A DNA stretch of 64,000 nucleotides. Origin: Dehalococcoidia bacterium. Lineage in GTDB: Bacteria; Chloroflexota; Dehalococcoidia; Bin125. The notes below the pieces were generated by a model, which saw only the letters and a program-made list of their open reading frames with translations, ran no database searches and was not told the origin of the DNA. The translations under genes and the position numbers were made by a program. The stretch's first letter is position 1. Each line of letters starts with the position of its first letter. This document shows, in pieces, positions 1,223 through 51,265 of the stretch. The stretch is taken from positions 771,617 to 835,616 of the forward strand of contig OZ253456.1 of the NCBI GenBank assembly GCA_965261225.1. The letters run 5' to 3'.

Positions 1223-1224
1223 GA

Positions 1225-2148: not shown

Positions 2149-2150
2149 CG

Positions 2151-4609: not shown

Positions 4610-4620
4610 GGCCATGGCGC

Positions 4621-6312: not shown

Positions 6313-6329
6313 CAAAGACCTCATTCCCA

Positions 6330-6382: not shown

Positions 6383-6450
6383 AGGAGTCACCCAAAGTCT
6401 ATGCCGCTCCCAAAGATCTCCCTGCTCGCACACCTCCGCACAGATCGCCT

Positions 6451-6725
6451 GCCATCTGCTTCCGGTCCCCTCTCCCTCTGGAGACCTGCGTGTAGACCCA
6501 GTCCGCACGATGTGGAAAAACTTCCCCCTCTTACCCCCTCTCCCTCTGGGAGAGGGCTGGGGTGAGGGTCCCCCCGGTCTAGTTATCTGGTGGCGGCCAC
6601 GCCTGCCTCGCGGCCCGGCCCTCACTCTAACCCTCTCCCAGAGGAGACCTGCGCGTAAGTCACCTGCGGTCTGATTCCGGTCCCCTCTCCCCGAGGGAGA
6701 GGGATAGGGAGAGGGCCGGCCCACG
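6451..6725. repeat. Cluster of family D repeats (ccctctccctctgggagagggctggggtgaggg type)
   Basis: Four full or partial units read at about 6451-6496, 6525-6572, 6612-6658 and 6664-6720. Each is internally palindromic. Confidence 0.75.
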
Positions 6726-6796
6726 ACCAACAAAGGCGGAACCCCCCCCACACACACACCATTGCCAACAAACGTTCTGGTCTCTACCCTGTCCCC

Positions 6797-7072
6797 ATGC
6801 CCACCCTCAACGTCCAAAACCGAACCCTCTTCCACGGAGACAACCTCCCCTTCCTCCGAGGCATCAACTCCAACACCATCCACCTCATCGCCACCGACCC
6901 GGGCTATGTCGCGCTAGACCACAACACCCCCAGGTCCGACGGAGGGCTCAACCACATCAGCAACCGCCTCCTCCTCTGCGGCTCCTGCAACCGAATCAAG
7001 AGCAACACCCTAACCCTCAGCGGCCCCCGCGCCGAAAACAAGAAACGCCGCCGGATGGCTGCGGAGAGCTAA
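6797..7072 (+). pseudogene. Internally deleted remnant of an N4/N6 DNA methyltransferase
   Basis: The 91-aa ORF starts like a DNA methylase N-terminus (NRTLFHGDNLPFLRGINSNTIHLIATDP..), where the DPPY/F motif is cut short. It then jumps to an HNH-like C-terminal tail (..LDHNTPRSDGGLNHISNRLLLCGSCNRIKSN..). It is far too short for an active enzyme. Confidence 0.6.
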
Positions 7073-8391: not shown

Positions 8392-8479
8392 ACACAACAT
8401 CCGCCAACCCCAACACACCGACAGAACAAATGTCCGCATACCATCGACTCCACCCGTCGCCAGCCCGAAGGAGCAGTCA

Positions 8480-8827
8480 ATGTCCGAGCAGAAGCCATTC
8501 ATCCCCTTCGAGGGCAACGCCATCCGCCGCGCCCTCGGCGAGCTCGCCGCCACCGGCCCTGGCTACGTCCGACTCGGCGCTCTCAAGGTCATGGCCTCCA
8601 TGCTCGGTCTCTCCGACGATCCCCTCGCCCACGCCGATCCCCAGCGCGATCGACGACTCGATGCCGCCCTCGATGAGGTTGAAGCCATCCTCGGCGAGGC
8701 GCTCCGCAGCGAGACCAGGGTGCAGACCGCCGACCCGGACTCCCAATCCGGCCCCGAAGGCGGCGACGATCAAGACAACCAGGCAGAGCAGCAGGAAGAA
8801 GCCGACGATGACGACGAACCACCATAA
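8480..8827 (+). CDS. Hypothetical acidic protein, in the position of a small terminase subunit
   Basis: Internal ATG of ORF 8153..8827, preceded by GAAGGAG. It reads MSEQKPFIPFEGNAIRRALGEL... with a D/E/Q-rich tail, and overlaps the terminase start by 20 nt. Confidence 0.5.
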   Translation: MSEQKPFIPFEGNAIRRALGELAATGPGYVRLGALKVMASMLGLSDDPLAHADPQRDRRLDAALDEVEAILGEALRSETRVQTADPDSQSGPEGGDDQDNQAEQQEEADDDDEPP

Positions 8828-10217
8828 TTCCTCAGACCGCACGGTCCGTAAGGCCCTCAAAGCCCTCCATCGGCTCCGTTTTTTTTCTCCCACAGAGCGC
8901 CAACAAGAACTCTACGAAGAGATCTTCGACGCGTCCCCGGACAGCCTCACCCTGCTCGGCTACGGAGGCGCCATGGGCGGCGGCAAAACTCGCGCCGTCG
9001 TCGAACTCGCCATCGACGCCGCCCTCGCCTTCCCCGGCAACAACATCCTCGTCGCTCGACAACACTTCACCGACCTCTCCGGAACCACCATGAAGGCGTT
9101 CTACAACGCCTGCCCCGATGAGTACATCCGCAGCACGCAATCCGCCCCGACGCCACTCGCCAGGATCGCCCTCCCAAAGCGCCCCAACGACCACATCTCG
9201 ACCATCAACTTCCGACACCTCACCGACTGGTCCGGCCTCGGATCCCAGGAATATGGCGCCGTGCTGATCGACGAAGCGGGAGAGGTCGCCGAGGAGGCCG
9301 CGCAGATGCTGCTCACCCGACTCCGGCACCCCGCCCAGCCCCAGCGCTGGTTCGTCGCCGCATCCAATCCCTGGCCGGGCTGGTTCGAGCGCTGGTTCGC
9401 CCGACGCGAGCTGGACGAGGAAGCCTTCGCCGAAGCCGACGGGCGGATCGTCTACATCCCGGCGAAGATTCCCGACAACCCGCACCTGCCCTCGACCTAC
9501 GCCGCCCAGCAACGAGCGATTCAGCCCGGCGAGTGGGTCGACCGCTTCATCGAGGGCAGCTTCGACGCCTTCGACGGGCAAATCTACCAGCACTTCAGCC
9601 CCGACACACACCGATGGGACGCGCCCCTGCCGCCCTTCGCCCGATACGTCGGCGGACTCGACTTCGGCGGGCAATCGCCCAAGGACCACTACACCGCCGG
9701 CATCGTCGCCGGCCTCACCGACCAGCGCGCGCCCTGCGGACCCAACATCCTGATCCGGCTGGGCGAGTTTGAGGAGCGCGGCCCCGGCGTCACCCAGCGA
9801 CTCGAGCAGTGGCAACAGTCCTGGCATCGCAAACTCGGCCCCATCCAATGGTGCGCCGACCGCTCACAGTCGGCCTGGATCGACCACCAACGCCGACAGG
9901 GCCACCACGTCGTCCCCAGCAAGGGAGGGCCGGACAGTGTCAACTGGGGCATCGCCTTAGTACAACAACGACTCAACGGAGACCCACCCAGCGCCTACTA
10001 CACCCCCGCAATGGATAAGTTCCCCGGCCGGATGCGTGAGTATCAGTGGGATCAGTCAACCACCGACCAGAGTCCAAAACCAAAGAAACGAAACGACGAC
10101 CTGCTTGACGCCGACCGCTACATGCACGAAATCGCAACCCAGCAACCAAGAACCAGGACAACATTCAAGCTCACCACCCCCGTCAGAGGCCGAGACGCCC
10201 GCTGGAGGGGAGCATGA
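8808..10217 (+). CDS. Phage terminase large subunit (ATPase plus nuclease)
   Basis: Frame of ORF 8430..10217, start taken at ATG 8808 (MTTNHHNSSDRTV..). Walker A YGGAMGGGKTRA, Walker B AVLIDEAGE, ..IPAKIPDNPHLP.., and nuclease part GGLDFGG...DDLLDADRYMHE. Confidence 0.8.
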   Translation: MTTNHHNSSDRTVRKALKALHRLRFFSPTERQQELYEEIFDASPDSLTLLGYGGAMGGGKTRAVVELAIDAALAFPGNNILVARQHFTDLSGTTMKAFYNACPDEYIRSTQSAPTPLARIALPKRPNDHISTINFRHLTDWSGLGSQEYGAVLIDEAGEVAEEAAQMLLTRLRHPAQPQRWFVAASNPWPGWFERWFARRELDEEAFAEADGRIVYIPAKIPDNPHLPSTYAAQQRAIQPGEWVDRFIEGSFDAFDGQIYQHFSPDTHRWDAPLPPFARYVGGLDFGGQSPKDHYTAGIVAGLTDQRAPCGPNILIRLGEFEERGPGVTQRLEQWQQSWHRKLGPIQWCADRSQSAWIDHQRRQGHHVVPSKGGPDSVNWGIALVQQRLNGDPPSAYYTPAMDKFPGRMREYQWDQSTTDQSPKPKKRNDDLLDADRYMHEIATQQPRTRTTFKLTTPVRGRDARWRGA

Positions 10218-10226
10218 CCCGTGAGG

Positions 10227-10487
10227 TCAGTCGAGGAAGGCGATGAGCAGACCGACAGCGCCGATAATCAATCCGGTCGCAATCATCATGGCGAGCAGCA
10301 GTTGCGTGCGCATCTCGGCCATGTCGCGCCGCATCTCTGTCATCAGCAACTTGAACTTCAGGTCCGACTCACGACGTCCGTACGTGTGGTTGTCAATCGC
10401 GTCTGCCGCCTCGTCAGCCTGCGCCTCCTCGACCCCCAACGAGTGGAAGGCGCGCCTGAGCCGGACGATCGGATTCATCGCCGCCAT
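10227..10487 (-). CDS. Tail-anchored small membrane protein, paralog A (DUF1640/XhlA-like architecture)
   Basis: 86 aa: MAAMNPIVRLRRAFHSLGVEEAQADEAADAI.., a charged helical middle, and a C-terminal TM LLLAMMIATGLIIGAVGLLIAFL. Confidence 0.7.
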   Translation of the reverse strand: MAAMNPIVRLRRAFHSLGVEEAQADEAADAIDNHTYGRRESDLKFKLLMTEMRRDMAEMRTQLLLAMMIATGLIIGAVGLLIAFLD

Positions 10488-10499
10488 GCTCGACCCTCC

Positions 10500-10793
10500 T
10501 CAGTTGACTGCGACGATGATGGCGACTGCGACGCCGACGATCACGATGATCTCGATCAACAGCTCCCGTCGATGCGCGATCATCATCTCCCGCATCTCGG
10601 CGGTCTGCTGCCGCAGCTCCGCCATCATGCGCTCAAAGCGCAGGTCCGATTCGCGCCGGCTGTAGCCGTATTCGCTGATCGCATCGGCGGCCTCTTCCGA
10701 AATGTCGTCAGCGGCGACATCGGTCAAGGGCGCACTCGCCCCCAACGAGCGAAACGCCCGTCGCAACCGCAGAATCGGATTCATCGCCGCCAT
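10500..10793 (-). CDS. Tail-anchored small membrane protein, paralog B
   Basis: 97 aa with the same N-terminal MAAMNPILRLRRAFRSLG and C-terminal ..HRRELLIEIIVIVGVAVAIIVAVN. A 12-nt gap containing GGAGGG separates it from its neighbour. Confidence 0.75.
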   Translation of the reverse strand: MAAMNPILRLRRAFRSLGASAPLTDVAADDISEEAADAISEYGYSRRESDLRFERMMAELRQQTAEMREMMIAHRRELLIEIIVIVGVAVAIIVAVN

Positions 10794-10805
10794 GCTCGAC
10801 CCTCC

Positions 10806-11054
10806 TCAGTTGAGTGCGACGATGATGGCGACTGCGACGCCGACGATCACGATGATCTCGATCAACAGCTCTCGTCGATGCGCAGCCATCATCTCCTGCA
10901 TCTTGGCCATCTCACGCTGGAACATCAACTCAGTCTCGCGTCGGCTAAAGGAATGATCGCCGAGCGCATCCGCTACCTCGTCGACCTGCTCATCATCCAC
11001 GCCCAACGAGCGAAATGCCCGTCGCAAACGCAGGATCGGGTTCATCGCCGCCAT
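10806..11054 (-). CDS. Tail-anchored small membrane protein, paralog C
   Basis: 82 aa. The N- and C-termini are identical to paralog B at protein level, and long DNA stretches are shared (10470-10580 versus 10776-10885). Confidence 0.75.
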   Translation of the reverse strand: MAAMNPILRLRRAFRSLGVDDEQVDEVADALGDHSFSRRETELMFQREMAKMQEMMAAHRRELLIEIIVIVGVAVAIIVALN

Positions 11055-11066
11055 GCCCGTTCCTCC

Positions 11067-11297
11067 TCAGTTGACCAGCGCCAGAAGCGCGACGCCCAGC
11101 CCGACGATGATCAGCACGCCGAGCAGCAACGGATTGCGATCCTCCGCCATGATCCTGGCGATCCGCTCCTCGAATTCGCGGCGACTCAGGTAGATGTCGT
11201 CCAGCACCGTCGACAGCTCGTCCGCCTCCTGAGGCTGCGCCCCGACCTGTCGAAACAAGCGGCGCAATCGCAAGATCGGGTTCATGCTCGACATCAC
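11067..11297 (-). CDS. Tail-anchored small membrane protein, paralog D
   Basis: 76 aa: MMSSMNPILRLRRLFRQVG..., C-terminal TM LLLGVLIIVGLGVALLALV. It lies 33 nt downstream of the methyltransferase stop, with GAGG before the ATG. Confidence 0.7.
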   Translation of the reverse strand: MMSSMNPILRLRRLFRQVGAQPQEADELSTVLDDIYLSRREFEERIARIMAEDRNPLLLGVLIIVGLGVALLALVN

Positions 11298-11330
11298 AGC
11301 CTCGCGTTCCTCGTCCCCAATATACCGTAC

Positions 11331-14300
11331 TTATCGCCTATCTGTTCTACGTTGAGAATCCTCCCCGTTCTCAGTAAAGACCACCCGAGACCGCTTCCCC
11401 CCATGAATCTGAGGCTCCCGAGCCAGCTTGCGCCGAATCAAATCAATCGGCCCATCGTCCGCCACCAAGGATTCCGGAAGCCCCAAAACATCAACCAAAA
11501 TCGCCCGGTCCAACTTCGCCCGAGCCGGGTCCTCATCAATCTGGTCAAAAGGAAGAAACCGCTCCGCAGAAAGCAACGCAAACTGCCGCTTGGCCTCGGT
11601 ATGCTGAGCATCGGTAAGGGTGCGGGTGTCGAGAGTAGGAATGTTAGGAATGCCGCTGACGGTTGTAGTGCCACGACCGTCTTGTGTCTTGTTGGCGACC
11701 CACCAGTGGATAAGCAGTCCGAGTGTCGAGTTGCACCACAGCGAGAACGCGTATTCGTGTTCAGAGTCTTGCAGGATGACAGAAGGCCACGCCCGCCCTC
11801 CAATGCACTTGCGCTCAGTCATTGCCACAATCAACGACTGAGAGTTGAATCGGAGATCGCGGTTATAGTGGGCTCGTGTAGCAGTCGCCCACACATGGGC
11901 GGCTTTGTCCTGCAACAATTCCTCCATACCCTCATCGATTCTCAACAATCCTTCGGAATCAGGTTCCACGGTCAGGCGACGTTCGCGTTTCGCCTTGTGC
12001 GCCCAAAGAGTTGGATACGTCGGTACAGGTCCTTGTGGAGGCGACTGAATGTCGAATGGCCCCCGAATTTGCCTCGCTCCGCCGACGAAGGACTGCTCTA
12101 TGCCATTGATGTCACGATCGACCGGGCCGCGTTCTGCAATTCTTCCTATAGGTACTACGGCGATAGGTATGTCCTCTGCTCCCGGTTCACCTATACGCTG
12201 CATTCTTCGCAGAGTAAGTTGGTGCGCGAACTGTGCCAATTCGAGATCGAGAATCCCGCAGAGAGTCCAGGGCCCCGATTCTTGAAGCGCCATAGAACTT
12301 ATCGTTCCGTAAGTTGCTCCGCCGAGTTGCAACGCTGTAACACCGCTACCGTCCTCAATAGAACGAACATTGGAGTTGCGCTGCAACTTACGTATCTCAT
12401 TGCCGAGTTGCTCTGCCTCGGTCGCCGTCGTTGGAAGCTTCCGCAAGACCACGAACCAGTTGTGGCGATCGTTGTCCTTCGCAACCTGATCGTGCGTGAG
12501 TACCACGAGGCATTCGGCCATTCCGGTGTCGGCAGAGAACGACCGGTCAAAGCTTCCCTCCGCCGCGATTGTGACAACGGTGGTCTCTCTGTAGTCATCT
12601 TGCCATTGACCTCGCAGTTTGTCCCAGGAACTGCCACTCATCGACGAAAGGGGCAGAACAAACGCCAAACTTCCGTCCTCGTTTCGCTTGCGATGTGCGA
12701 GTTCTGCGAACAATGCCGCCATACCTGCATTTCCTGCAGCGGCAGAGCCTTTAGTAAGAGATTTCTCGCGGCGAGACATCGCGTCCTGCTGCTGAGGCGT
12801 CGTCTCGAATGCAGAGTAGGCAGGATTTGGAACGTCGCTATGTGCACCCTCGTGGTTCGTCGGGCGCGTAAAGGGTGGATTCATGATCACCAGATCGAAC
12901 TTGTCGTGACCAACTCTTGTCCTCAAATCGGCAACATCTTCCGGAAGACGTCCTCCAGACGTGGTTGCAGATGCATCCTCAATCAGACTTGGCTGTACGT
13001 CTTTAGCGAGCAGCTCCAGCGACCCAATCGACGCCGACTCCCCGCCGTACGGCATCGTCAGCAGGCACTCACCATCGAAGGGCACGTCAGGATGTGCCCC
13101 CGCGAGCATCGTCGCCGTCAGATGCACCGCGATATTGAGCACATCGAGTCCGACCAGCCCGTTCTTCATCATCGGCGCGTGCAGCGCTCGCGGGTCGCCG
13201 CCGTTGAGCTCGTGCAGCAGCGAGATGCGCTGGTAGGCCGCCGAGAGCAGCGTCCCCGTGCCGCAGGCGAAGTCGCCGATCTGCAGCGAGGCGATCGTCT
13301 CCTCGTCGCCCCACTCCGCCCCACCCGGCGCACGGTCGGCGGGAATCGCCAACCCGGCCAGCAGCGCCGCCGCCGCCGGTCGCGTGTAGAATGTCGCCAG
13401 GAACTTCCGGTCCGCAATCAGACGCTGAAAGATCACCCCGGTCAGGTCGTGCGACTTGGTCACCCCGCGTTGCACCAGACGCAGCGCGCCCTTGCGCAAT
13501 GGCGTCAGCACCGCCGCGGCCGTCTCTTCCGGCAGCTTGCGGACAATCTCCGACGCCGTCGCGAAAATCGGCCAGTAGTTGATCTCCAGCACAGACTCCC
13601 ATTCCAGAGTCAGGGCGTCAATGTCGAAGTCGCCCGGCGGCAGCAGCTCACGCAGGTGTCGCAGACGTCGCTGCGCGCCTGCATCGGTGATGAAAAACTC
13701 GGCCCCGGCCAGCGCCTCATGGAAAATCAGCGCATTGATCACAACAGTCATCGCCATCCGGCGAGTCTGACCGCCCTGATCATCGGATTGTCCAAGCAGG
13801 TCGGCGATATCAGAGCCAATCGACCCCGTTGCGTGGGAGCCGTGCCGGTAAGTGAAGGCAGCCGCGGCGTCCTCAATGCTCTGCTCGAGGATCACACCCA
13901 TGCGCTCGACGCGCGGCGCCGGTGTCGAGGCCCGATGCGCCAACATCGCCAGGTCACGGGCAGAGCCCGTCAGCCAACCGCTCTGCGGCAAGCGCTCCAC
14001 GCCGCCGCCACGCGTGCGCGTCAGCAGCGCGTATTCCAGACCGTCCGTGGTCCGCAACGTCTGTCGCAATTCCTTTCCGTCGATCTCCCAAACCTCCGGC
14101 GGATAGACCAGCGCGATTACGCTCTCGATCGGCTTGCGGGTCTCGTTGACGACCTGTCCCAGCCGATCACGCGCATCCAATTCGGCGCTGTCGTAGTTCG
14201 CTTTGTCCGCCTCAATCGCCACAGGCCACTGCGCCGCTTCTTCAATCAGCACATCGGGCCGCTTGGCAGAGGATCGAATCGTGCGAGTCTCTTCGAAATG

Positions 14301-14378
14301 CACCTGCCAACTGTGAGGCCGAAGCTCCCGCAGCACCTCGCCCAGAGCGACATTGATCGTGTGCTCATGAGTAGGCAT
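11331..14378 (-). CDS. Large single-chain N6-adenine DNA methyltransferase with an N-terminal nuclease-like domain (type IIG/IIL-like restriction-modification enzyme)
   Basis: 1015-aa ORF. SAM motif I is DFACGTGTLL and catalytic motif IV is VIMNPPFTRP, a gamma-class order. The N-terminus has a possible PD-(D/E)xK-like signature (KRPDVLIEE..WPVAIEADK). The roughly 400-aa C-terminal region has visibly lower G+C, as expected for a target-recognition domain. Confidence 0.75.
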   Translation of the reverse strand: MPTHEHTINVALGEVLRELRPHSWQVHFEETRTIRSSAKRPDVLIEEAAQWPVAIEADKANYDSAELDARDRLGQVVNETRKPIESVIALVYPPEVWEIDGKELRQTLRTTDGLEYALLTRTRGGGVERLPQSGWLTGSARDLAMLAHRASTPAPRVERMGVILEQSIEDAAAAFTYRHGSHATGSIGSDIADLLGQSDDQGGQTRRMAMTVVINALIFHEALAGAEFFITDAGAQRRLRHLRELLPPGDFDIDALTLEWESVLEINYWPIFATASEIVRKLPEETAAAVLTPLRKGALRLVQRGVTKSHDLTGVIFQRLIADRKFLATFYTRPAAAALLAGLAIPADRAPGGAEWGDEETIASLQIGDFACGTGTLLSAAYQRISLLHELNGGDPRALHAPMMKNGLVGLDVLNIAVHLTATMLAGAHPDVPFDGECLLTMPYGGESASIGSLELLAKDVQPSLIEDASATTSGGRLPEDVADLRTRVGHDKFDLVIMNPPFTRPTNHEGAHSDVPNPAYSAFETTPQQQDAMSRREKSLTKGSAAAGNAGMAALFAELAHRKRNEDGSLAFVLPLSSMSGSSWDKLRGQWQDDYRETTVVTIAAEGSFDRSFSADTGMAECLVVLTHDQVAKDNDRHNWFVVLRKLPTTATEAEQLGNEIRKLQRNSNVRSIEDGSGVTALQLGGATYGTISSMALQESGPWTLCGILDLELAQFAHQLTLRRMQRIGEPGAEDIPIAVVPIGRIAERGPVDRDINGIEQSFVGGARQIRGPFDIQSPPQGPVPTYPTLWAHKAKRERRLTVEPDSEGLLRIDEGMEELLQDKAAHVWATATRAHYNRDLRFNSQSLIVAMTERKCIGGRAWPSVILQDSEHEYAFSLWCNSTLGLLIHWWVANKTQDGRGTTTVSGIPNIPTLDTRTLTDAQHTEAKRQFALLSAERFLPFDQIDEDPARAKLDRAILVDVLGLPESLVADDGPIDLIRRKLAREPQIHGGKRSRVVFTENGEDSQRRTDRR

Positions 14379-14410
14379 CGGGCGCTCAGTCTAGACGCCG
14401 TCCGCCACCC

Positions 14411-14803
14411 TCAAACCGACTCGATGACGAGGTTCGGGATGCGCTCGAAGTGGCGGCGGTTGTTGGTCAGTAGGGTCAGGTCGTGCTGTAGCGCCGTCGC
14501 CCCGATCAGGAGGTCCATGCTGCCGAACAAATTGCCTTGCCTGCGCAAACGATTGCGTTCGATTCCGAACAGGCGGGCTGTCTCGAAGTCGACTCCCAAC
14601 AGCACAAGGTCTCCAACAAACATCCGTAACTGCTGTTCACGTTGCGCACGATCAGGCGCGCCCGCGACTCCCTCGTATAGCTCGGCCAATGCGATCACAC
14701 TGATGGCAATGCCGAGAGGTTCCAGGGATACGATGCGACTCACAAGTCGTTCGATGCCGTTGAGGTACTCGATGGCCCAGTCGGAGTCCAACAGGTATTG
14801 CAT
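14411..14803 (-). CDS. vapC: PIN-domain toxin VapC
   Basis: Internal ATG of ORF 14411..14983: MQYLLDSDWAIEYL...ALAELYEG...MDLLIGATALQHDLTLLTNNRRHFERIP, which are PIN acidic motifs. Confidence 0.8.
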   Translation of the reverse strand: MQYLLDSDWAIEYLNGIERLVSRIVSLEPLGIAISVIALAELYEGVAGAPDRAQREQQLRMFVGDLVLLGVDFETARLFGIERNRLRRQGNLFGSMDLLIGATALQHDLTLLTNNRRHFERIPNLVIESV

Positions 14804-14807
14804 CGTC

Positions 14808-15056
14808 TCAGAGATGCCTGGGCGGTCGTGTGCCGTCGATGCGGGCTTGGTAGATGTCGCGGATGAATTGTTCGTGGTCATCGAACATATCAGCCCAGAC
14901 ACCTGCAGACCTGGCCAGCCCCCCCTTGTCGGATGGTGGCTGCTTGTGGTCATCCAGGGTGAGGACGACTTCCTGGTCTTCACTGAGGTCGATGTCCTCG
15001 AGCGGCTCGAGGACGCCGTTGTGGTAGCGGGCGCGGAAGTTCTTGAGCGTCATCAT
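14808..15056 (-). CDS. DUF104/AF2212-like antitoxin (VapB-type partner)
   Basis: 82 aa: MMTLKNFRARYHNGVLEPLEDIDLSEDQEVVLTL.. is typical of DUF104. It ends 4 nt upstream of vapC. Confidence 0.7.
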   Translation of the reverse strand: MMTLKNFRARYHNGVLEPLEDIDLSEDQEVVLTLDDHKQPPSDKGGLARSAGVWADMFDDHEQFIRDIYQARIDGTRPPRHL

Positions 15057-15116
15057 CGCCTCCGAGCTTCACCGTATCAGTCTGGCCCAGGCGCGGTCAC
15101 GCCCTACACTCTGCCC

Positions 15117-16334
15117 ATGACCGACCAACCTGGACCCCTCGACGGTGTGACTGTCCTCGACCTCACCGAGCACATTGCCGGGCCGTATTGCACCAAGCTG
15201 TTTGCCGACTTTGGCGCCGATGTGATCAAGGTCGAGCCTCACGACGGCGACGCGTCGCGGTCGGTCGGGCCGTACTACGAGGGCCTACCGGGGCTTGAGC
15301 GGTCGGGGACGTTCTTCTACTTCAACACCAACAAGCGCTCGCTCGTGCTCGACCTGGAGCACGCCGACGCCGGCACGGTAGTCGAGCGGCTGATTCAGCG
15401 CGCCGACATCGTGGTCGAGTCGCAGCCGCCGGGTCGGTTGGACGAGCTGGGCCTCGGCTGGGAGCGGATCTCGTCGTTGCGCGACGACCTGCCGCTGGTC
15501 TCGATCTCGCCGTTCGGCCACGACTCGCCCTACCGCGACTACAAGGTGTCGGACCTGGTGCTCTACGGCTTCGCCGGCGAGATGTACTCAATCGGCGTGC
15601 AGGACCGCGAGCCGGTCAAGATGTTTGGCACGGCCTCGCTGGTCGAGTGCGGCGCGGCCGCGGCGACGGCGTCCCTGGGCGCGCTGACAGCGGCCGAACT
15701 GCAGGGCATCGGCCAACAGGTCGACTTTTCCATGGCCGACGCACAGTTCAACGGTGTCGACCGTCGCCACGCCGCGACCATTGGCTGGGAGTTCGCGGGC
15801 CGCAAGTCGCTGCGCGCGCCCGGTCCGGCGGCCGGCATGCTGACCGGCGTCTATCCCTGCGCCGACGGCTACGTCGAGTTCTCGGGCGCCGCCATCCGCA
15901 TCCCCAGGCTGAACGAGATGCTCGGTCGTCCCGAGTGGCTGCAAGACGAGAAGTGGTGGCAGCCAGGCATCGGTCTGAACCCGGAGCTGGTGGACGAGTT
16001 CAACGCACACTTCCTGCCCTGGTCGCTAGAGCGAACCAAGCGAGACATCTGGGCTACGGCGCGAGAAGCCAGAGTGCTCTGCGGCCCACTCTTCTCAGTC
16101 GACGAATTGTTCGAGGACACCCACTTCAGCGACCGAGGCTTCTGGGCAACGGCCAATCATGCGGAGCTGGGAGAAGTCCAGCTCCCCGGCCGGCCACTAA
16201 TCATGCCGGCATCGCCGTGGAGCCTGAGGCGCCCACCGCCACTGCTCGGCGAGCATACGGACGAGGTGTTGTCGGAGTGCGGGTTTGGAGCGGAAGAGGT
16301 GGAGGCGCTGCGGAGGTCTGGAGTGGTAAAATGA
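15117..16334 (+). CDS. Family III CoA-transferase (CaiB/BaiF-like)
   Basis: 3' part of the artefactual 2037-aa ORF. ATG 15117: MTDQPGPLDGVTVLDLTEHIAGPYCTKLFADFGADVIKVEP..., C-terminal ..LGEHTDEVLSECGFGAEEVEALRRSGVV. Confidence 0.85.
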   Translation: MTDQPGPLDGVTVLDLTEHIAGPYCTKLFADFGADVIKVEPHDGDASRSVGPYYEGLPGLERSGTFFYFNTNKRSLVLDLEHADAGTVVERLIQRADIVVESQPPGRLDELGLGWERISSLRDDLPLVSISPFGHDSPYRDYKVSDLVLYGFAGEMYSIGVQDREPVKMFGTASLVECGAAAATASLGALTAAELQGIGQQVDFSMADAQFNGVDRRHAATIGWEFAGRKSLRAPGPAAGMLTGVYPCADGYVEFSGAAIRIPRLNEMLGRPEWLQDEKWWQPGIGLNPELVDEFNAHFLPWSLERTKRDIWATAREARVLCGPLFSVDELFEDTHFSDRGFWATANHAELGEVQLPGRPLIMPASPWSLRRPPPLLGEHTDEVLSECGFGAEEVEALRRSGVVK

Positions 16335-19676: not shown

Positions 19677-22088
19677 TCAGCCCAACGTCCCCGCTGCGGC
19701 GAGACGCACCATGTCGTCGTCGCTGTAGTTCAGGAGACCTTGCAGGACTTCTTCGGTGTGTTCCCCCCAGATTGGGGCTCGCACCGCTGGCAGACGTTTG
19801 CCGTCCCAGAGGATTGGCTCCTGTTGGATTTGGAACGTGGGGCCTTCAGGCGACTTGGCTGGGTTGTAGTTGTCGCGCATGGCGAGGTCCTGGCCGAGGA
19901 AGAAGTCCTCGAGCCGTTCGACTGGGCTGGCCGGGACTTCGGCGTTGATCAGCAGACGGTACGAAGTCCACTCGTCCTGGGTGCGGGTCCACTCTGAGAT
20001 TGCGGCTTCCAGCTCGTCCTCGTGCGCTTTGCGACCGCCGAAGTTGCCTAGTTCGTCGCGCGACACCAGGTCGGCGCGCCCGATGACACGGCAGAGGTTG
20101 CGCCAGTCGGCGTCGTTGCGGCAGGCGATGGCGACCCAACGGTCGTCGCCGGCGGCTGGGAAGATGCCGTGCGGCGACATGAATGGTGAGCGGTTGCCCA
20201 TTCGCGGACGCTCGCCCGCGCCGTTGAGCGCTTCGATCAGTTCCGTATCGAGCAGCTGGACTGCGGTTTCGTATTGCGCGATCTCGAGGTATCGGCCTTC
20301 GCCGGTCTGCTCGCGGTGGTCCAATGCAGCCATGACTGAAGTTGCCAGGTAGTAGGGGACGGTGAAGTCGGTATGCAGCGTGCCCAGACCAATCGGCGAG
20401 CGTCCGGGGAAGCCAGAGCGATAGGCCAGACCGCACATCGCGACAATGCCGTTGCCGTAGGAGCGCCACTCGGCGCGTGGACCCTCGATGCCCATTACGG
20501 CGACGTTGCAGACGATGATGTCCTCGTTGATTTTGCGCAGATCGTCGTAGCCGATGCCCCAGCGGTCGAGCCGATACGGCGTGTAGTTCGATGTGACGAG
20601 GTCGGCCTGCCTGGCGAGTTCGCGGACGGCGTCGATGCCCTGCTCGGTCTTGAGATTGAGCGTGACCGACTTCTTGCCGCCGGCGCAGTCGTTGAATGTG
20701 CCGTTGGTATTGATCGAGAAGTGGTCGGGCGGCTGGACGCCTCGATAGCGAATTGGGTCGATCCGCGATTCCGACTCGATCTTGAGCACTTCGGCGCCGA
20801 GGTCGGCCAACAATCGCGTGCCGAGCGAACCGGCGATTGCCCAGGTGAAGTCGAGGACACGGACGCCGTCGAGGGGTCGTCTTGGCGGTGGGGGTGACGC
20901 GAAGAGGACCCCCTCTGCCTTCGGCATCTCCCCCTGCAAGGGGGAGAGTTGATCGAGGCTCGCGAAGACGTCATCTGTGTGTTCGCCGAGGGCTGGGGCG
21001 CGCTTGGCCCGGGGCTCTTCGCCGCGAGTGCGGATGGCTGAACGTGGCAACGTCAGGGTTCTGCCGAGTTGCGGATGATCGACGGTTTGGTAGTAACCGC
21101 GAGCGTGCAGATGAGGATCGGCGGCGACTTCTTCGACCGTATTGATTGGCAACACCAGGAGTCCGAGTTCCTGTCCTCGGTCGTGCAGTTCGGTGATGGT
21201 CAGGGCCTGGCAGAGGCGGGCGATCCATGGTTTGATCTCGTCCGTCTGTTGCTCGCGCCAGAACTCGTCGTCCCACTGCTCACCGCGCAGCTCACCCTCC
21301 TCGAGCCCGAGCACGTCGTCGAGCCAGTTCACGAACCGGTACCAATGGGGCGGATGAATGGTGAAGGACAGCCAGTGACCGTCGCCTGCCTGGAACGTGG
21401 CGCCGGAGCCAATCGGGATGTGACGGTCGGGCGAAATGCCGTGCCAGGTCCACCAGTTGCCACTGGCGGTCTGGAGGGTGGTGAAGGTGACGGCTTCCTG
21501 CAGCGACACGGTGATTCGTCCCACGCCGCCACCGCGCCGCCGCTGCATGATCAGCGCCATTGCCGCCTCGGCCATGGCGATCGAGCCCTGCTTGTGCGAG
21601 AGGTTGCCGGCCGGCCAGACCGGAGGATCCTGGGGATGCCCGTTGAGCACGACGTGTCCACCGGCCGCCATCGCCGTGATGTCGGTCATCGGCTCGTCCG
21701 CGCCGCGACGGAATACCGCGTCGACGAGGGGAATCTCGGACGACCACTCAGCGTTGCGTCCGCGCTCCAGCCAGGCGGCGAGCGCTCCGGAGGACTCCAG
21801 CGGCGCGAGCACGGCGTCGAAGTGCGGCAGCATCGATTCGATCTGCGTCCAGGTGTCCGGGTCGTCGATATCGACGGCGACTGATCGCTTGCCGGCGTTG
21901 TAGAGCAGATGAGCCCAGCCGCGCTCGGCGCGTGGCGCGTCGCCCGGCATCGCCGGCTCGCGCATCCGCAGGTGGTCGCCACGGGCGTCTTCGACGCGAA
22001 TCACGTCGGCGCCGAGGTCGGCCAGGAGTCGAGCGCCGAGGGCGAGCGGTTCGTCGGTGAGGTCGAGAATTCGTGTGTCGTTGAGCAT
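19677..22088 (-). CDS. Tandem-domain (duplicated) family III CoA-transferase
   Basis: ORF 19677..22139, start taken at MLNDTRILDLTDEPLALGARLLADLGADVIRVED. A second complete CaiB-like domain starts at ..PLDGVRVLDFTWAIAGSLGTRLLADLGAEVLKIES.. The two domains are joined by a repeat-derived linker. Confidence 0.8.
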   Translation of the reverse strand: MLNDTRILDLTDEPLALGARLLADLGADVIRVEDARGDHLRMREPAMPGDAPRAERGWAHLLYNAGKRSVAVDIDDPDTWTQIESMLPHFDAVLAPLESSGALAAWLERGRNAEWSSEIPLVDAVFRRGADEPMTDITAMAAGGHVVLNGHPQDPPVWPAGNLSHKQGSIAMAEAAMALIMQRRRGGGVGRITVSLQEAVTFTTLQTASGNWWTWHGISPDRHIPIGSGATFQAGDGHWLSFTIHPPHWYRFVNWLDDVLGLEEGELRGEQWDDEFWREQQTDEIKPWIARLCQALTITELHDRGQELGLLVLPINTVEEVAADPHLHARGYYQTVDHPQLGRTLTLPRSAIRTRGEEPRAKRAPALGEHTDDVFASLDQLSPLQGEMPKAEGVLFASPPPPRRPLDGVRVLDFTWAIAGSLGTRLLADLGAEVLKIESESRIDPIRYRGVQPPDHFSINTNGTFNDCAGGKKSVTLNLKTEQGIDAVRELARQADLVTSNYTPYRLDRWGIGYDDLRKINEDIIVCNVAVMGIEGPRAEWRSYGNGIVAMCGLAYRSGFPGRSPIGLGTLHTDFTVPYYLATSVMAALDHREQTGEGRYLEIAQYETAVQLLDTELIEALNGAGERPRMGNRSPFMSPHGIFPAAGDDRWVAIACRNDADWRNLCRVIGRADLVSRDELGNFGGRKAHEDELEAAISEWTRTQDEWTSYRLLINAEVPASPVERLEDFFLGQDLAMRDNYNPAKSPEGPTFQIQQEPILWDGKRLPAVRAPIWGEHTEEVLQGLLNYSDDDMVRLAAAGTLG
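20904..20948. repeat. Family C repeat copy inside the CDS, forming the inter-domain linker
   Basis: gaggaccccctctgccttcggcatctccccctgcaagggggagag, compared with the intergenic copy gggaccccctcagccttcggcagctccccctgcgagggggagc at 25952-25994. It is translated as ..LSPLQGEMPKAEGVLF.. Confidence 0.75.
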
Positions 22089-22210
22089 TGCAACAGAATA
22101 GTGGGCGCCGTGTCGCGCTCCATGTGCAAGGCTCGCCAACGAGCTGCCTGGTTCGATCTCAATGGTTCCGCTTGCAGAGACTGATGCATCACTCCCCTCT
22201 CCTCCCTTGC

Positions 22211-38438: not shown

Positions 38439-38569
38439 TGCCGCCTCTTCAGAGGCCCGTCCGGAATCGGACCAGACGCGCCGCAGATGTCAGTTTAGAT
38501 GGTCAGTTCGGATAGACGAACTAACAGCGCAGCGCTTCAGATAACCCCTCACGACCACCTCTTCGTTCC

Positions 38570-38790
38570 GTCACTCCCACTCCCTTTCCGTCATTCCCGC
38601 TGCCCTTCCGTCATTCCCGCGGAGGCGGGAACCACGATCCTCGACCGGTTGGAAGAAATGAAAACCGACGCCGTCGCACGGACTGCCCGCACGGGACGAT
38701 CGGGGGACGGCAACAGTTTGAGGTGCTTGCGCAGTTGGGTGCTTCGTGGTTCCCGCCTCCGCGGGAATGACGGAGGGGGTCGGGAGTGAC
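38570..38790. repeat. MITE-like element with about 45-bp terminal inverted repeats (family E, gtcattcccgcggaggcgggaacc core)
   Basis: gtcactccc...ccgtcattcccgcggaggcgggaaccacg ... cgtggttcccgcctccgcgggaatgacgg...gggagtgac. Confidence 0.75.
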
Positions 38791-38825: not shown

Positions 38826-39878
38826 ATGACCACAAAGACACACATACTTTCCGACGAACTGTCCGCCATCGACTGGTGCTACGAACAGGGTTGGACCGAC
38901 GGACTGCCCGTCGTTCCTCCGGCGCGCGAGCGGGTCGAGCGATTCCTGATGGCCGCCGGCCGTCCGCCTGAGGAGATCGTGGCCCGACATCCCGCCACCG
39001 GACGTGAGTGCAGCGTGCAATCGGCAGCGGTCAACGCCGTCATGTCAGGCTGCTTGCCGCAGTACTTCCCGACCGTGCTGGCCGCGCTCGAAGGTCTCAA
39101 TGAAGACGCCTACAACTTCCACGGCTCGACCGCCAGCACCGGCGGATCCGCTCCCGTGGTTATCATCTCCGGCGACATCCGCGATGAAATCGGGATGAAC
39201 GCCAGCGTCAATGTGTTTGGTCCAGGTAACCGCGCCAACGCCACCATTGGCCGTGCGATTCGCCTGGTGATCATGAACATCTTCCAGATGATCCCCGGCA
39301 TCTCCGACCGCTCGACCACCGGCTGGCCCGGCAAGTACGGCTGCTGCATCGCCGAGAACATCCTCAATAGCCCCTGGGAACCGCTGCACGAATCGCTCGG
39401 CTTTCCGGCCGAGGTGTCGACCGCCACGGTTTTTGCCGCGTCCGGTTTCTACAACATCGAGAATCACTACACCAGCGACCCTGAGCTGCTGCTCAACACC
39501 TTCGCCGACTCCATGGCATCGCTGGGGGCGCTGACGGATGGGCAATCGCTGGTCGTGATGTCGCCTGAGCACGCGCAGATTGCGGCGTCGGGCGGGATGA
39601 CCAAGCAGGACGTTCAGGCGTACCTGCTCGAGCACGCCGCCCGCGCTCCCGAGGACCTGCTGAGCACGGGCAAGTGGCCGTCGGGTCAGCCACAGGATGG
39701 ACTCGCCGAGGGCGACCGCGGCAACGGCCTGTTCCACCGCGGACGCAGTCCTGACGACATCCTGCTCGTCGTCGCCGGCGGCGAGGCCGGCGGACACTCC
39801 GCCTTCCTGCCCTCGTGGAGCCGTGGTCGTAACTCGATTTATCAAACCAAAGCAATCGGCGTCTGCCTGGACTGCTAA
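38826..39878 (+). CDS. Conserved hypothetical protein, partner of the UGSC selenoprotein
   Basis: 350 aa: ..WCYEQGWTDGLPVVPPARERVERFL.., ..GPGNRANATIGRAIRLV.. No function is known to me. Confidence 0.7.
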   Translation: MTTKTHILSDELSAIDWCYEQGWTDGLPVVPPARERVERFLMAAGRPPEEIVARHPATGRECSVQSAAVNAVMSGCLPQYFPTVLAALEGLNEDAYNFHGSTASTGGSAPVVIISGDIRDEIGMNASVNVFGPGNRANATIGRAIRLVIMNIFQMIPGISDRSTTGWPGKYGCCIAENILNSPWEPLHESLGFPAEVSTATVFAASGFYNIENHYTSDPELLLNTFADSMASLGALTDGQSLVVMSPEHAQIAASGGMTKQDVQAYLLEHAARAPEDLLSTGKWPSGQPQDGLAEGDRGNGLFHRGRSPDDILLVVAGGEAGGHSAFLPSWSRGRNSIYQTKAIGVCLDC

Positions 39879-39910
39879 CGCAGACCGCAGCGCGTAAGAC
39901 GGAGCACATC

Positions 39911-40438
39911 ATGGCGCTAGAACTCTTCGACCCAACCGGCGAGCCGACACCGACCGGCTTCTGCTCGGCGCCGAGGCTGTCCTCGCTCGAGGGCCTGCGT
40001 ATCGGCCTCTTTTCCAACGGCAAGGTCAACGCCGACAAGCTGCTGCGCTACACCGCCGAGGTATTCGAGAAGCAGGAGCATTGCAGCATCGTGATCGACT
40101 CCGGCAAGCGCAACGCCAGCCGGATCGCCGAACCGCAGGTGTTGGAGCGGATCGCCATCGATGTCGATTTCCTGATCACCGCGGTGGGTGATTGAGGCTC
40201 CTGCTCAACGTGCAGTGTGCACGACGGCATCTCCTTCGAGCAGTACGGCAAGCCCGGCCTGGTTCTCTGTACGCACCCATTCGACCCCACCGGCCGCATG
40301 ATCGCCAAGACCCTCGGCATGCCCGATTTCAAGTACGCGCTGGTCGATCACCCAATCGGCAGCGCCGGAATCGAAGGCCTGCAAATGAGGGCGCTAGAAG
40401 CCTACGAGCAAGGCCGCCGAATCCTCCTCGGCGCGTAG
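39911..40438 (+). CDS. UGSC-motif protein, predicted selenoprotein
   Basis: ORFs 39911..40195 and 40217..40438 are in the same frame (offset 306 nt). The only interruption is TGA 40193-40195, read as ..LITAVGD-U-GSC-STCSVHDG.. GGAG precedes the ATG. Confidence 0.8.
40209..40223 (+). promoter_or_regulatory. SECIS-like hairpin downstream of UGA 40193-40195
   Basis: CGUGCA-GUG-UGCACG, a perfect 6-bp stem starting 13 nt after the UGA. Confidence 0.5.
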
Positions 40439-48861: not shown

Positions 48862-50043
48862 CTACTCTCTGGTTCGGCCAAGCACGCCTATCAGCACTTC
48901 CTGCTGATGCTCCCCGAGCCTCGGCGCTGGACGCCTGACCGACGCCGGCGTCCTCTCAAAGTCCCAGGGCGGCGCGACCTGTTGCAGGACTGAACCGTCT
49001 CCCTGCTCTACGCCAACGATCGCCCCGACCGCCTCAACCTGTGGATCCCGGCTGAGCCGCTTATAGTCGTGCATCGGGAAGGCCCAGCCGCCATGACGCT
49101 CGACGATCTCGATCACCTTCTCAGCGTCAAAGTTGGCGAATCCGCGTTCCCAGAGCGGCTTCAACTCGGCCGCGTAGCGACCGGCGCCTCCCGCTCCATC
49201 AGTCCGTAGTCGGTCGAAGTCCGGATGTGTTCGTACCCAGTCCATGCCCAGTTCATCAATCAGGGCCTCAAAGGCGTCGCCACTGATTCGCGCCAGCGAG
49301 AAGTAGATGGGCAGGTCGCGACATTGATAACCATGATCAGGAGGCTTGATGTAGGAGTCGAGGTGGAATCCCCACCACTCGTCGGGATTGGACAGCGCGA
49401 CCCAGAGTGTCGAGCGCATCGCAAGCAGGCTGCCGAACAGCGATACCTCGACTCGCTGCCCGCCTGTCGGCGCAGAGGGATCGGAATCGTCTCGCGCGTA
49501 GAGCGCGGCGCAGATCGCCTGGATCGCGTAGTTGGCGGCATACATCGAGCCAATGTCCCCGCCCTGGCGCACCGGTTCCTCGCCGATCACTCCGAGCGAC
49601 GCCGTCGATTCGCTGGCCAATTGCGCAGCAAGCTCGGAAGTCGGCCGGTCGTTCCACGGACCATGTGGTCCGAATCCTGAGAATGCGCAGTAGACGAGGC
49701 CGGGAGCGTCAAGCGAATCCCAACTCAATGCGTCGGGCAAGCCGACTTTGTCGACGATTGCCACATCAGCGCCGGCAAGCAGTTGCCGCGCAGCCTCAAG
49801 ATCGCGTTGCGACGACCAGTCGAGCGTGACACATCGCTTGTTGCGATTGAGGGCCTGAAACAGGGCCGAAGCTCCGCTCTCCGTCTGCGGCGACCAACTG
49901 CGCGCTCGGTCGCCCGACGGCGGCTCAATCTTGATCACATCTGCCCCGGCGTCGCCCAGCGACATGGCCGTGTACGGGCCTGCGACGCCTTCAGAAATCT
50001 CGACGACCCGGTATCCATCCAGTGGACCGGGCATGTCAGTCAC
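48862..50043 (-). CDS. Family III CoA-transferase (CaiB/BaiF-like)
   Basis: 393 aa: MTDMPGPLDGYRVVEISEGVAGPYTAMSLGDAGADVIKIEP.. Confidence 0.85.
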   Translation of the reverse strand: MTDMPGPLDGYRVVEISEGVAGPYTAMSLGDAGADVIKIEPPSGDRARSWSPQTESGASALFQALNRNKRCVTLDWSSQRDLEAARQLLAGADVAIVDKVGLPDALSWDSLDAPGLVYCAFSGFGPHGPWNDRPTSELAAQLASESTASLGVIGEEPVRQGGDIGSMYAANYAIQAICAALYARDDSDPSAPTGGQRVEVSLFGSLLAMRSTLWVALSNPDEWWGFHLDSYIKPPDHGYQCRDLPIYFSLARISGDAFEALIDELGMDWVRTHPDFDRLRTDGAGGAGRYAAELKPLWERGFANFDAEKVIEIVERHGGWAFPMHDYKRLSRDPQVEAVGAIVGVEQGDGSVLQQVAPPWDFERTPASVRRPAPRLGEHQQEVLIGVLGRTRE

Positions 50044-51265
50044 CCACCACGGGTGACGGCTCTGACGCTGTGATGCGGCGCAGACTCAGCTCATCGAGGA
50101 TGTCGCCGGTGTGCTCGCCGGGCATTGGCGTGCCGAACCAGCGAGCCGGCGTTCTCGACAGCTCCCAGGGCGGACCCCCGGACCAGACATCACCCCAGCC
50201 GGACGTGGTGACTTCGCGCAGGTAGCCGTTCTCGATGGCTTGCGCGTGTTGTTGCAAGGATTCGAATGAGATTGGGTAGCCACATGGCACGCCGGCGTCT
50301 GCGAGGCGCAACATCCAGTAGTTGCGGGGACGCTGCAGGAAGGCTCCCTGAAGTAGCAATGCCAACTCGTCTCGGTGCGCGACGCGGTCGAGGTTGGTTA
50401 CGAATCGTGGATCGACTGCGAGTTCGCTCAGACCGGCGACCCGCGCCTCCGATGCATTCAGCGCATCGCAAAGTCTGGTCCATTCGTCCTCGCTCGTCGC
50501 CGCGACACCGATCCAATCGCCGCCCTGGCATTGAAATGCCTGGTCGGGCGCGGCCGCGAAGCCGGCAGAGCCTAACGGTTGGTGTTGGACACCTGTAGCC
50601 AGGTATTCCGCGATCCTCCCGCTCTGCAGGGACATGCCTGCGCGCAACATGCCGACGTGAATCCGCTGTCCCTTGCCCGTGCGTTTGTGAGCCAACAGAC
50701 CCATCAACACCGCTTGCGCAGCGACGTTGCCGGTGCTCGCATCCAGCTGGGTGAAGTGTCGGTAGACCTCCGGCTTGCCGTCTCGCTTGCCGTTCACCGA
50801 CCAGAAGCCGGTGAAGTACTGGCACTGCACGTCGGCGCCCGGCTTGTCACGCATCGGGCCGACCTCGCCCCAGCCGGTGATGGCGGTGTAGATGATGTTG
50901 GGATTGGCCGCCGCGACCTGTTCGTAGCCGACGCCCATGCGATCGGCGGCGCCGGGTCGCATATTGATCATGAAGACATCGCAGGTCTGCAGCAGTTCGT
51001 ATGCAGTCTGCCGATCCGACGGCGACTTCAGATCGAGGAACAGCCCACGCTTGTTCATGTTCCAGGTGATGTAGCCGACCGAGGTCCCGTTGATGGCCGG
51101 CGGCACACCGGCGCCCAGCGTGCGCGGGTCGACGCCGGGCTGCTCAATGTGAATCACATCCGCGCCCAGGGCGCCCAACTGCATCGACGCCCACGGCCCC
51201 ACCATCCACAGCGTCAGATCGAAGACGCGAACCCCATCAAGCGGTCCGGGCATATCAGCCTCCAT
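50036..51265 (-). CDS. Family III CoA-transferase (CaiB/BaiF-like)
   Basis: 409 aa: ..MPGPLDGVRVFDLTLWMVGPWASMQLGALGADVIHIEQ.. It overlaps the next gene by 8 nt. Confidence 0.85.
   Translation of the reverse strand: MEADMPGPLDGVRVFDLTLWMVGPWASMQLGALGADVIHIEQPGVDPRTLGAGVPPAINGTSVGYITWNMNKRGLFLDLKSPSDRQTAYELLQTCDVFMINMRPGAADRMGVGYEQVAAANPNIIYTAITGWGEVGPMRDKPGADVQCQYFTGFWSVNGKRDGKPEVYRHFTQLDASTGNVAAQAVLMGLLAHKRTGKGQRIHVGMLRAGMSLQSGRIAEYLATGVQHQPLGSAGFAAAPDQAFQCQGGDWIGVAATSEDEWTRLCDALNASEARVAGLSELAVDPRFVTNLDRVAHRDELALLLQGAFLQRPRNYWMLRLADAGVPCGYPISFESLQQHAQAIENGYLREVTTSGWGDVWSGGPPWELSRTPARWFGTPMPGEHTGDILDELSLRRITASEPSPVVGD

Follow-up and report, generated by a model that had tools for sequence, protein, structure and literature searches.

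A pair of adjacent genes, one for a UGSC-family selenoprotein and one for a 350-residue protein of a large unnamed family, was characterised in a 64,000-nucleotide stretch of DNA from a Dehalococcoidia bacterium (GenBank assembly GCA_965261225.1, contig OZ253456.1, positions 771,617 to 835,616 of the forward strand), which is referred to as the window and numbered from its first letter. The two genes form one operon-like module and very probably constitute a functional pair. The downstream gene (39911..40438, forward strand, 175 codons) is almost certainly a genuine selenocysteine (Sec) gene with a selenocysteine insertion sequence (SECIS) element, a conclusion drawn from comparative sequence data. 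The upstream gene, here termed the partner gene (38826..39878, forward strand; taken from the list of open reading frames, ORFs), would encode the catalytic subunit. New here are the strict tie of UGSC to this unnamed, putative enzyme family, the way in which its domains are fused and the proof of the SECIS element at codon level.

Reading frame and selenocysteine codon

The frame 39911-40438 on the forward strand contains a single internal stop, TGA 40193-40195, in the context ...DFLITAVGD-U-GSCSTCSVHDGISFEQ..., and translation across it reads FLITAVGD-U-GSCSTCSVHD around codon 95, the Sec codon. The U-G-S-C redox motif occupies 40193..40204 (forward strand) and consists of TGA (Sec95), GGC, TCC and TGC (Cys98). 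The ORF lister split the gene into 39911..40195 and 40217..40438; since the frame is open from 40196, GTG 40217 is a mere restart point of the lister, and no ribosome-binding site was seen before it on reading the sequence. The likely ribosome-binding site of the UGSC gene, read from the sequence, is GGAG at 39901..39904 (forward strand), 6 nt 5' of the ATG. The partner ORF includes GWTDGLPVVPP and GPGNRANATIGRA. An earlier reading made from the DNA alone (the sequence-only reading) had described two ORFs in one frame parted only by TGA 40193-40195, a hairpin CGUGCA-GUG-UGCACG 13 nt after it and an upstream gene with the motifs just quoted that ends 32 nt before the UGSC gene. All three points agree with the 175-codon translation, the position of the hairpin (40209-40223) and the distance from the partner stop at 39878 to ATG 39911.

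For searches with hidden Markov models (HMMs), U was written as C. The product matched Pfam family PF24696 ('UGSC family') with 150.3 bits (cut-off 25; E value 7.6e-44) over residues 5-172 of 175, and its only NCBIfam match was NF041046 (E value 1.4e-33), with 116 bits against an equivalog cut-off of 125 bits. NF041046 is described as 'UGSC family (seleno)protein', and the RefSeq fusion protein WP_431428495.1 carries the same words as its product name, so that the name given in the sequence-only reading is borne out. That reading had also called the family known yet functionally uncharacterised, which is how reviews up to 2026 list it. Published accounts of the family go back to 2007 or earlier; a paper of that year reports a UGSC gene in Hyphomonas neptunium, and a 2008 paper on the Global Ocean Sampling (GOS) data counted 255 Sec and 21 Cys sequences and proposed a thioredoxin fold. 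Judged by its sequence, the window selenoprotein is a new member of this known, uncharacterised family, and the gene itself is ordinary.

To assess the Sec codon, 80 genome loci fetched via the partner protein were used, in which UGSC was located by tblastn. They cover Dehalococcoidia/Chloroflexota, Alphaproteobacteria and Gammaproteobacteria; one locus each bears the label Entotheonella, Burkholderiaceae or Flammeovirgaceae. In 77 of the 80 loci, 79 UGSC copies were found, with 35-91% identity in full-length alignments that pass the TGA and reach the C-terminus. The Sec codon is TGA in every one of the 79, within the motif GD-U-G[SR]C-S[TS]CS; none ends at the equivalent of 40192, and the C-terminal half is kept in frame in every copy. 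Contiguous full-length Cys forms (GDCGSC) occur both as free proteins and in fusions, which provides the comparison with Cys homologues that the sequence-only reading had proposed: these proteins run uninterrupted across the Sec position. Position 95 (Sec, written as Cys) does not vary among 22 diverse family members, Cys98 is conserved in at least 90% of them, and the remaining Cys positions of the window protein are absent from the conserved columns. Sec95 and Cys98 (U-x-x-C) are the only conserved redox residues predicted for the UGSC protein. A word-index search with the full-length protein returned only 4 proteins, because gene callers split the Sec forms.

One UGSC homologue (P0122, loci L082-L084) has Ser at the Sec position (GDSESC) and no adjoining partner gene; its neighbours are Amidohydro_2, a TetR regulator and two acyl-CoA dehydrogenases. 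This Ser form may be degenerate or repurposed.

SECIS element

Bacterial SECIS elements are expected to be stem-loops that follow the UGA shortly and carry a G in a small apical loop. The hairpin at 40209..40223 (forward strand) begins exactly 13 nt past the TGA and comprises a 6-bp stem, CGUGCA (40209-40214) with UGCACG (40218-40223), closed by the apical loop GUG (40215-40217). In all 80 sequences compared, the loop opens with G and U. Across 76 distinct sequences the stem is paired in 456 of 456 cells, with the second pair varying between G-C (28), G-U (45) and A-U (3).

Codon usage within the hairpin is frozen. The in-stem Cys codon is TGC in 79/79 copies, whereas three codons upstream, in the UGSC motif, Cys is encoded by TGC in 51 and by TGT in 28. 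Likewise, the loop Ser codon is always AGT (79/79), whereas six different codons occur at the other two Ser positions. The in-stem Thr codon is ACG in 74 copies and ACA in 3, ACA being found solely with CAT opposite. Distant homologues have Trp (TGG) instead of Cys (TGC) in the 5' arm. A DNA-pattern scan of metagenomes on the UGSC Sec motif, in which the opposite codon was left free, yielded 120 loci. In these, the fifth stem pair, formed by the third bases of codons 6 and 8 and corresponding to C40213-G40219 in the window, is C-G in 87, G-C in 32 and G-U in 1, with no mismatch: a TGC codon faces the Val codon GTG, and a TGG codon the Val codon GTC. The exchange of C-G for G-C is a compensatory substitution at a synonymous position that cannot be put down to protein coding. 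The hairpin, which also appears in the minimum free energy (MFE) fold, is thus both conserved and covarying, and the SECIS prediction that the sequence-only reading had called for turned out in its favour. Codon-level covariation marks the predicted hairpin as a real RNA element with SECIS structure.

A tentative extension of the element to 40202..40229 (forward strand) includes a lower stem, formed in the MFE fold by 40202-40204 and 40206 with 40226-40229. In this stem 97.4% of cells are pairable, 16 of the 76 sequences are mismatched at one pair and no pair has changed on both sides; the lower stem is compatible with the data, not proven by them.

Linkage of the UGSC and partner genes

The association of the two genes was followed in both directions, as the sequence-only reading had suggested for the 350-residue family, and it holds both ways. 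When the search was seeded with the partner, UGSC was present in the 77 loci mentioned above, and one of the three exceptions stops at a contig edge. Of the UGSC copies, 77/79 lie on the same strand as the partner gene and 70/79 within 100 nt downstream of it (median gap 21 nt). When it was seeded with the UGSC Sec motif, a partner homologue was found in 97 of 98 informative metagenome loci; 22 further contigs were too short to judge and stand outside the 98. The partner adjoins UGSC on the same strand in 90 of the UGSC-seeded loci, upstream in 69 and downstream in 21. The pairing extends to a Cys-form UGSC, 4 nt upstream of which lies a homologue of the partner with 37% identity, and to a distant locus of the partner family reached through P0154, where a further partner paralogue directly follows Sec-UGSC in reverse gene order. 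No third gene is conserved across phyla in the 80 loci, synteny being limited to the Dehalococcoidia clade. The two-way co-occurrence, together with the gene fusions described below, agrees with the proposal of the sequence-only reading that the upstream gene works with UGSC.

Tandem partner-UGSC pairs were noted in two alphaproteobacterial loci, L024 (about 3416-4998 and 5989-7602) and L080 (about 3324-4990 and 5974-7593). The second UGSC paralogue in these loci has 35-37% identity to that of the window and retains both TGA and hairpin. In a further locus (L071), on a contig labelled Candidatus Fonsibacter ubiquis, the pair lies between a Baeyer-Villiger-type monooxygenase and a type-B carboxylesterase gene. 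This contig is rich in long overlapping antisense ORFs, a pattern usual with high G+C content, whereas the Candidatus Fonsibacter ubiquis lineage is AT-rich; the contig may be mis-binned.

The partner protein

Neither the partner nor its distant homologues matched any Pfam or NCBIfam model, even at E values up to 10. The family is nevertheless large: a word-index search returned more than 5,693 homologues, every source-named copy being a 'hypothetical protein', and an exhaustive search gave 6,292 clusters at 50% identity with E values of at most 1e-3, and 1,646 with at most 1e-30.

Conservation was assessed in 80 diverse members. The conserved residues comprise D25-G-L-P28, N70-A-V-M-A-G-C76-P, T105, N125, G-x-G-x-R136-A-N138, G142-R143, C174-x-x-E177, W184 and H249. 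The only family-wide cysteines are Cys76 (motif NAVMxGC-P; codon 39051..39053, forward strand), present in 75/80, and Cys174 (motif PGKYxxC-IAE; codon 39345..39347, forward strand), present in 77/80; Glu177, beside Cys174, is conserved at 99%. By contrast, Cys18 and the C-terminal C-L-D-C tail (Cys347 and Cys350; 39864..39875, forward strand) are confined to the subfamily of the window, which pairs with a separate Sec-UGSC gene. The CxDC tail is invariant in 14 close homologues and occurs in about 20% of the wider family; it is absent from the partner of a Cys-form UGSC and from fusion proteins.

An AlphaFold2 model of the partner based on the 80-sequence alignment reached a mean predicted local distance difference test score (pLDDT) of 94.2 and a predicted template modelling score of 0.93. 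It was used in place of an earlier model built on a 14-sequence alignment, whose pLDDT was 60 and whose Foldseek matches were meaningless. A Foldseek search of the model against the Protein Data Bank (PDB) gave no convincing match, and a search of the partner profile against PDB sequences returned noise only. Two candidate folds were considered and rejected. Class I (Fe-S) fumarate hydratases gave the best Foldseek E value (9.7e-4, probability 0.7-0.8), but template modelling (TM) scores were only 0.19-0.32 and root-mean-square deviations (rmsd) 15-17 Å; an Fe-S hydro-lyase is further disfavoured by the presence of only two conserved cysteines and the lack of a Pfam match to Fe-S hydro-lyase families. 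Toblerone-fold cyclic amide hydrolases gave E values of 2e-3 to 3e-2, but TM scores of only 0.16-0.24. On the strength of the model, the partner is treated as having a fold with no solved relative.

Six proteins (P0127, P0133, P0136, P0140, P0144 and P0161) carry tandem double partner domains in one polypeptide of about 710-740 residues. P0127 follows an SBP_bac_5 transporter gene, and no UGSC lies within 4 kb upstream of it or in the roughly 0.5 kb downstream to the contig end.

Domain fusions

Fusions were counted among the best 150 representatives of the partner family. Nine proteins have a full-length Cys-UGSC N-terminal to the partner. Another 20 start with the C-terminal half of UGSC followed by the partner, the gene call beginning just past the Sec codon. 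In five, the partner is followed by the N-terminal half of UGSC; four of these stop at ...D, exactly before the Sec codon, and for one of the five the missing C-terminal half was called 21 nt downstream. UGSC and partner are thus fused in both orders.

Other fusions join the partner to redox modules. Thioredoxin-like AhpC-TSA/Redoxin domains are found in P0215, P0245 and P0248 (with CATC, CPTC and CPTT, respectively), the catalytic chain of ferredoxin-thioredoxin reductase in P0241 and P0221 (CPC...CPC...CHC), and a flavoprotein of the low-molecular-mass thioredoxin reductase type in P0195 (CAVC). A Sec-UGSC gene directly precedes the thioredoxin-reductase fusion (P0195, loci L088/L089) and the ferredoxin-thioredoxin-reductase fusions alike, so that disulfide reductase, UGSC and partner are encoded there as one unit. 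NifU-like matches in two fusion proteins were weak (E value about 0.008) and lay under the Pfam cut-off. Read from the domain arrangements, the fusion pattern implies a putative thiol/selenol redox relay.

The linkers of P0215, P0245 and P0248, about 30-40 residues before the partner domain, share P-G-C-G-S-[RK], in which C-G-S echoes the U-G-S of UGSC.

Proposed function and alternatives

The reading towards which we lean, by a narrow measure, is that UGSC serves as a selenol/thiol redox carrier for a cysteine-dependent reductase and works by a carrier-to-client mechanism. UGA 40193-40195 would be read as Sec with the aid of the conserved hairpin to give the 175-residue protein. The partner would serve as catalytic subunit in a thiol-dependent oxidoreductase, with a candidate reactive centre consisting of Cys76, Cys174 and the family-wide polar residues Asp25, Asn70, Thr105, Asn125, Arg136, Asn138, Arg143, Glu177, Trp184 and His249. 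As a client enzyme, it would need reduction of Cys76 and Cys174 at each turnover. UGSC would act as a dedicated selenium-containing thioredoxin analogue that is reduced by a disulfide reductase and hands electrons to the partner, with the reductase modules feeding UGSC. In the subfamily of the window, the flexible C-terminal CxDC tail of the partner may relay electrons from UGSC to the active site; such a relay would be limited to this subfamily, since the tail is absent where UGSC is fused or in the Cys form. The polar residues would suit a small anionic substrate if they line one pocket, and the two Arg and four Asn among them suggest an anionic small molecule. The wider proposal, that UGSC and partner make up a widespread unrecognised selenium-dependent oxidoreductase system that is fed by inputs of the thioredoxin-reductase or ferredoxin-thioredoxin-reductase kind and reduces a small metabolite in abundant aquatic bacteria, in soil bacteria and in sponge symbionts, is plausible but falls a little short of being favoured.

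Several results weigh against one part or another of this account. Sec is retained near-universally (79/79 copies and 120 further loci), seemingly beyond the needs of a simple electron shuttle, which favours a direct catalytic role. No reductase gene lies beside the pair in the window among the ORFs scanned. The UGSC profile showed no relation to the thioredoxin-like domains fused to the partner (hhalign probability 0.8%), and its comparison with PDB sequences gave noise only. As regards the Sec machinery, a tRNA scan of the window revealed no tRNA gene, that for tRNA-Sec (selC) included, and selA, selB and selD were not seen among the 20 long ORFs of the window that were scanned against Pfam. 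Indirect support for a Sec-decoding host is given by the four other conserved UxxC genes with hairpins in the window. Shuffled sequence folds as well as the hairpin and its surroundings (z between +0.8 and -1.1; -0.17 to -1.14 for the hairpin alone), and a search of the whole window against Rfam gave no match at gathering thresholds; with a free energy this ordinary, stability was not used, and the case for the hairpin rests on conservation and covariation. Finally, the neighbours of the 80 loci gave no consistent substrate clue and recur only loosely, too weakly for a substrate to be named.

A serious rival, if an unlikely one in our judgement, is that Sec95 itself is the catalytic nucleophile and that UGSC and the partner form a composite active site, as in glycine or D-proline reductase, in which the partner binds or activates the substrate. 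Such an arrangement would better account for the near-absence of Sec replacement, seen in the 79/79 copies, in the 120 further Sec loci and in the GOS ratio of 255 Sec to 21 Cys sequences. It would also fit the single-chain UGSC-partner fusions in both orders, and the fact that reductase-partner fusions keep a separate UGSC gene, as if the reductase were no replacement for UGSC. On the other hand, no similarity to GRDB (PF07355) or the GrdE/PrdA families was detected even at E values up to 10, CxxC thioredoxin-like domains stand where UGSC would be in some fusions, Sec is replaced by Cys in some forms and by Ser in one, and the partner retains two invariant cysteines of its own.

It is improbable that the partner is a metal or Fe-S enzyme, for example of a hydro-lyase-like type, for which UGSC would maintain, repair or deliver a cofactor or keep ligand thiols reduced instead of carrying catalytic electrons. 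The conserved Cys, His and Glu could bind a metal, the best Foldseek matches were to class I fumarate hydratases (E value 9.7e-4), and two fusion proteins gave weak NifU-like matches. However, the TM scores of 0.19-0.32 and an rmsd above 15 Å argue against a shared fold, the NifU matches fall below the Pfam cut-off, and no Pfam match to Fe-S hydro-lyases was obtained. Hydro-lyases of the class I fumarate hydratase type use three cysteines as cluster ligands, compared with two family-wide cysteines in the partner.

That the TGA is an ordinary stop, leaving a 94-residue protein plus a small ORF, or a pseudogene, with the hairpin as a by-product of the amino-acid sequence, is scarcely credible: public gene callers do split the gene at the TGA (e.g. 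P0121) and the free energy of the hairpin is unremarkable, but this explanation is already contradicted by the comparative data, namely a TGA at the same codon with downstream conservation in frame in 79/79 copies, contiguous Cys homologues, frozen synonymous sites, compensatory C-G/G-C changes and the lack of a visible ribosome-binding site before GTG 40217.

Comparison with known systems

The window gene has the same GD-U-GSC motif, length and HMM families as the known UGSC family and differs from it in nothing essential. To this, the analysis adds a partner family that is nearly constant, a set of diverse domain fusions and covariation in the SECIS element. A fusion named 'UGSC/Unknown_1' is mentioned in the 2008 GOS paper, and Unknown_1 may be the partner.

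The redox-carrier reading likens the pair to thioredoxin/thioredoxin-reductase systems and their client reductases (MsrA/MsrB, ArsC and class I ribonucleotide reductase), in which a small U/C-x-x-C protein is likewise encoded beside, or fused to, a cysteine client. In both cases, modules of the thioredoxin-reductase or ferredoxin-thioredoxin-reductase type share an operon or a polypeptide with the pair. The R1 subunit of class I ribonucleotide reductase has a C-terminal cysteine-pair tail, which the C-terminal CxxC tail of the partner appears to resemble. Unlike thioredoxins, UGSC has no thioredoxin fold detectable from its sequence and contains Sec almost exclusively, and unlike the clients of thioredoxin systems, the partner falls outside the known reductase families and lacks any relative of solved structure.

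Glycine and D-proline reductases (GrdA, GrdB, PrdB) offer a second comparison, since there too a UxxC or CxxU selenoprotein is encoded beside a partner subunit lacking Sec. These are multi-subunit, thiol-linked enzymes for which the selenoprotein is essential; GrdB and PrdB attack a substrate held by a second subunit and are then re-reduced through thiols. The 2008 GOS paper lists PrdB with UxxC. GRDB (PF07355) and Gly_reductase (PF09338) gave no match to UGSC, the partner or their homologues even at E values up to 10. In contrast to glycine and D-proline reductase loci, oxygenase genes (Baeyer-Villiger-type monooxygenase, TauD-like dioxygenases) are found beside the UGSC pair, and no pyruvoyl-type proprotein is evident with it. 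Its hosts are presumably mostly aerobic heterotrophs, not Stickland fermenters.

Gene neighbourhood and other features of the window

The window contains a dense catabolic gene set. Neighbours of the pair include genes for an FAD_binding_2 flavoprotein, a major facilitator superfamily (MFS) transporter, an acyl-CoA dehydrogenase, LutB/LutC-like proteins, Amidohydro_2, a thiolase-like protein, a carboxyl transferase and three CoA-transferase family III proteins (19677-22139 and 50036-51265 on the reverse strand, and about 15100-16334 on the forward strand). Recurring at other loci are CoA-transferase III, acyl-CoA dehydrogenase, enoyl-CoA hydratase, MaoC, esterases, Baeyer-Villiger-type monooxygenase, Amidohydro_2 and transporters of the ATP-binding cassette (ABC) or tripartite ATP-independent periplasmic (TRAP) type. 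Taken together, the neighbours point only loosely to the catabolism of organic acids and acyl-CoA compounds; they would suit catabolic islands for organic acids and single out no reaction.

Four further selenoprotein genes are predicted in the window. These lipoprotein-like DsbA/Thioredoxin_4 genes lie in tandem at 548-3844 on the reverse strand, with in-frame TGA codons whose first bases are at 991, 1671, 2609 and 3412. Their UxxC motifs read FLUGGC, FLUPIC, FQUPGC and FTUPIC (PF13462, E values 1e-22 to 7e-27), and each gene carries a conserved hairpin, (C)GGCUCA-GGU-UGAGCC(G), about 20 nt past the UGA. They share with UGSC the UxxC motif and a short GC-rich hairpin with a small G-containing apical loop, but belong to another fold family (PF13462), look exported (signal peptide, lipobox-like N-terminus) and lack a partner gene of their own. 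The sequence-only reading had counted five selenoproteins in the window and no classical one. This count agrees with what was covered: four DsbA genes bear UxxC, and the 20 long ORFs scanned against Pfam, the other long ORFs being unscanned, include neither a formate dehydrogenase nor a glycine reductase.

Between the partner gene and the divergent MFS gene lies a gap of 387 nt with a 35-nt inverted repeat (38603-38637 and 38744-38778), whose arms are 97% complementary and 106 nt apart, and a 20-nt tandem direct repeat is located at 38566-38605. The core of the inverted repeat was found nowhere else in the window; it may be a small mobile element, an element of the repetitive extragenic palindromic (REP) kind or a regulatory site. 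An ORF at 8430-10217 contains a phage terminase large-subunit domain (Terminase_3, E value 1.8e-8). It is followed by an open frame of 2,037 residues (10221-16334) that matches a family, CoA-transferase III, in its last ~370 residues only and is therefore probably not one gene.

Significance

Through the tie of UGSC to one large unannotated family with two invariant cysteines, the standing question of what UGSC does becomes an experimental one. The natural fusions to redox modules indicate the likely direction of electron flow, and a defined in vitro system follows from them, made up of reductase, UGSC and partner. The UGSC hairpin is one of the cleaner bacterial SECIS cases with codon-level covariation. 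In addition, about 6,300 clusters without a family model are flagged, whose members are probably mis-split by gene callers where they are fused to Sec-UGSC. The reading of the pair as a selenium-dependent oxidoreductase, if true, would explain why UGSC ranks among the commonest selenoproteins of the ocean.

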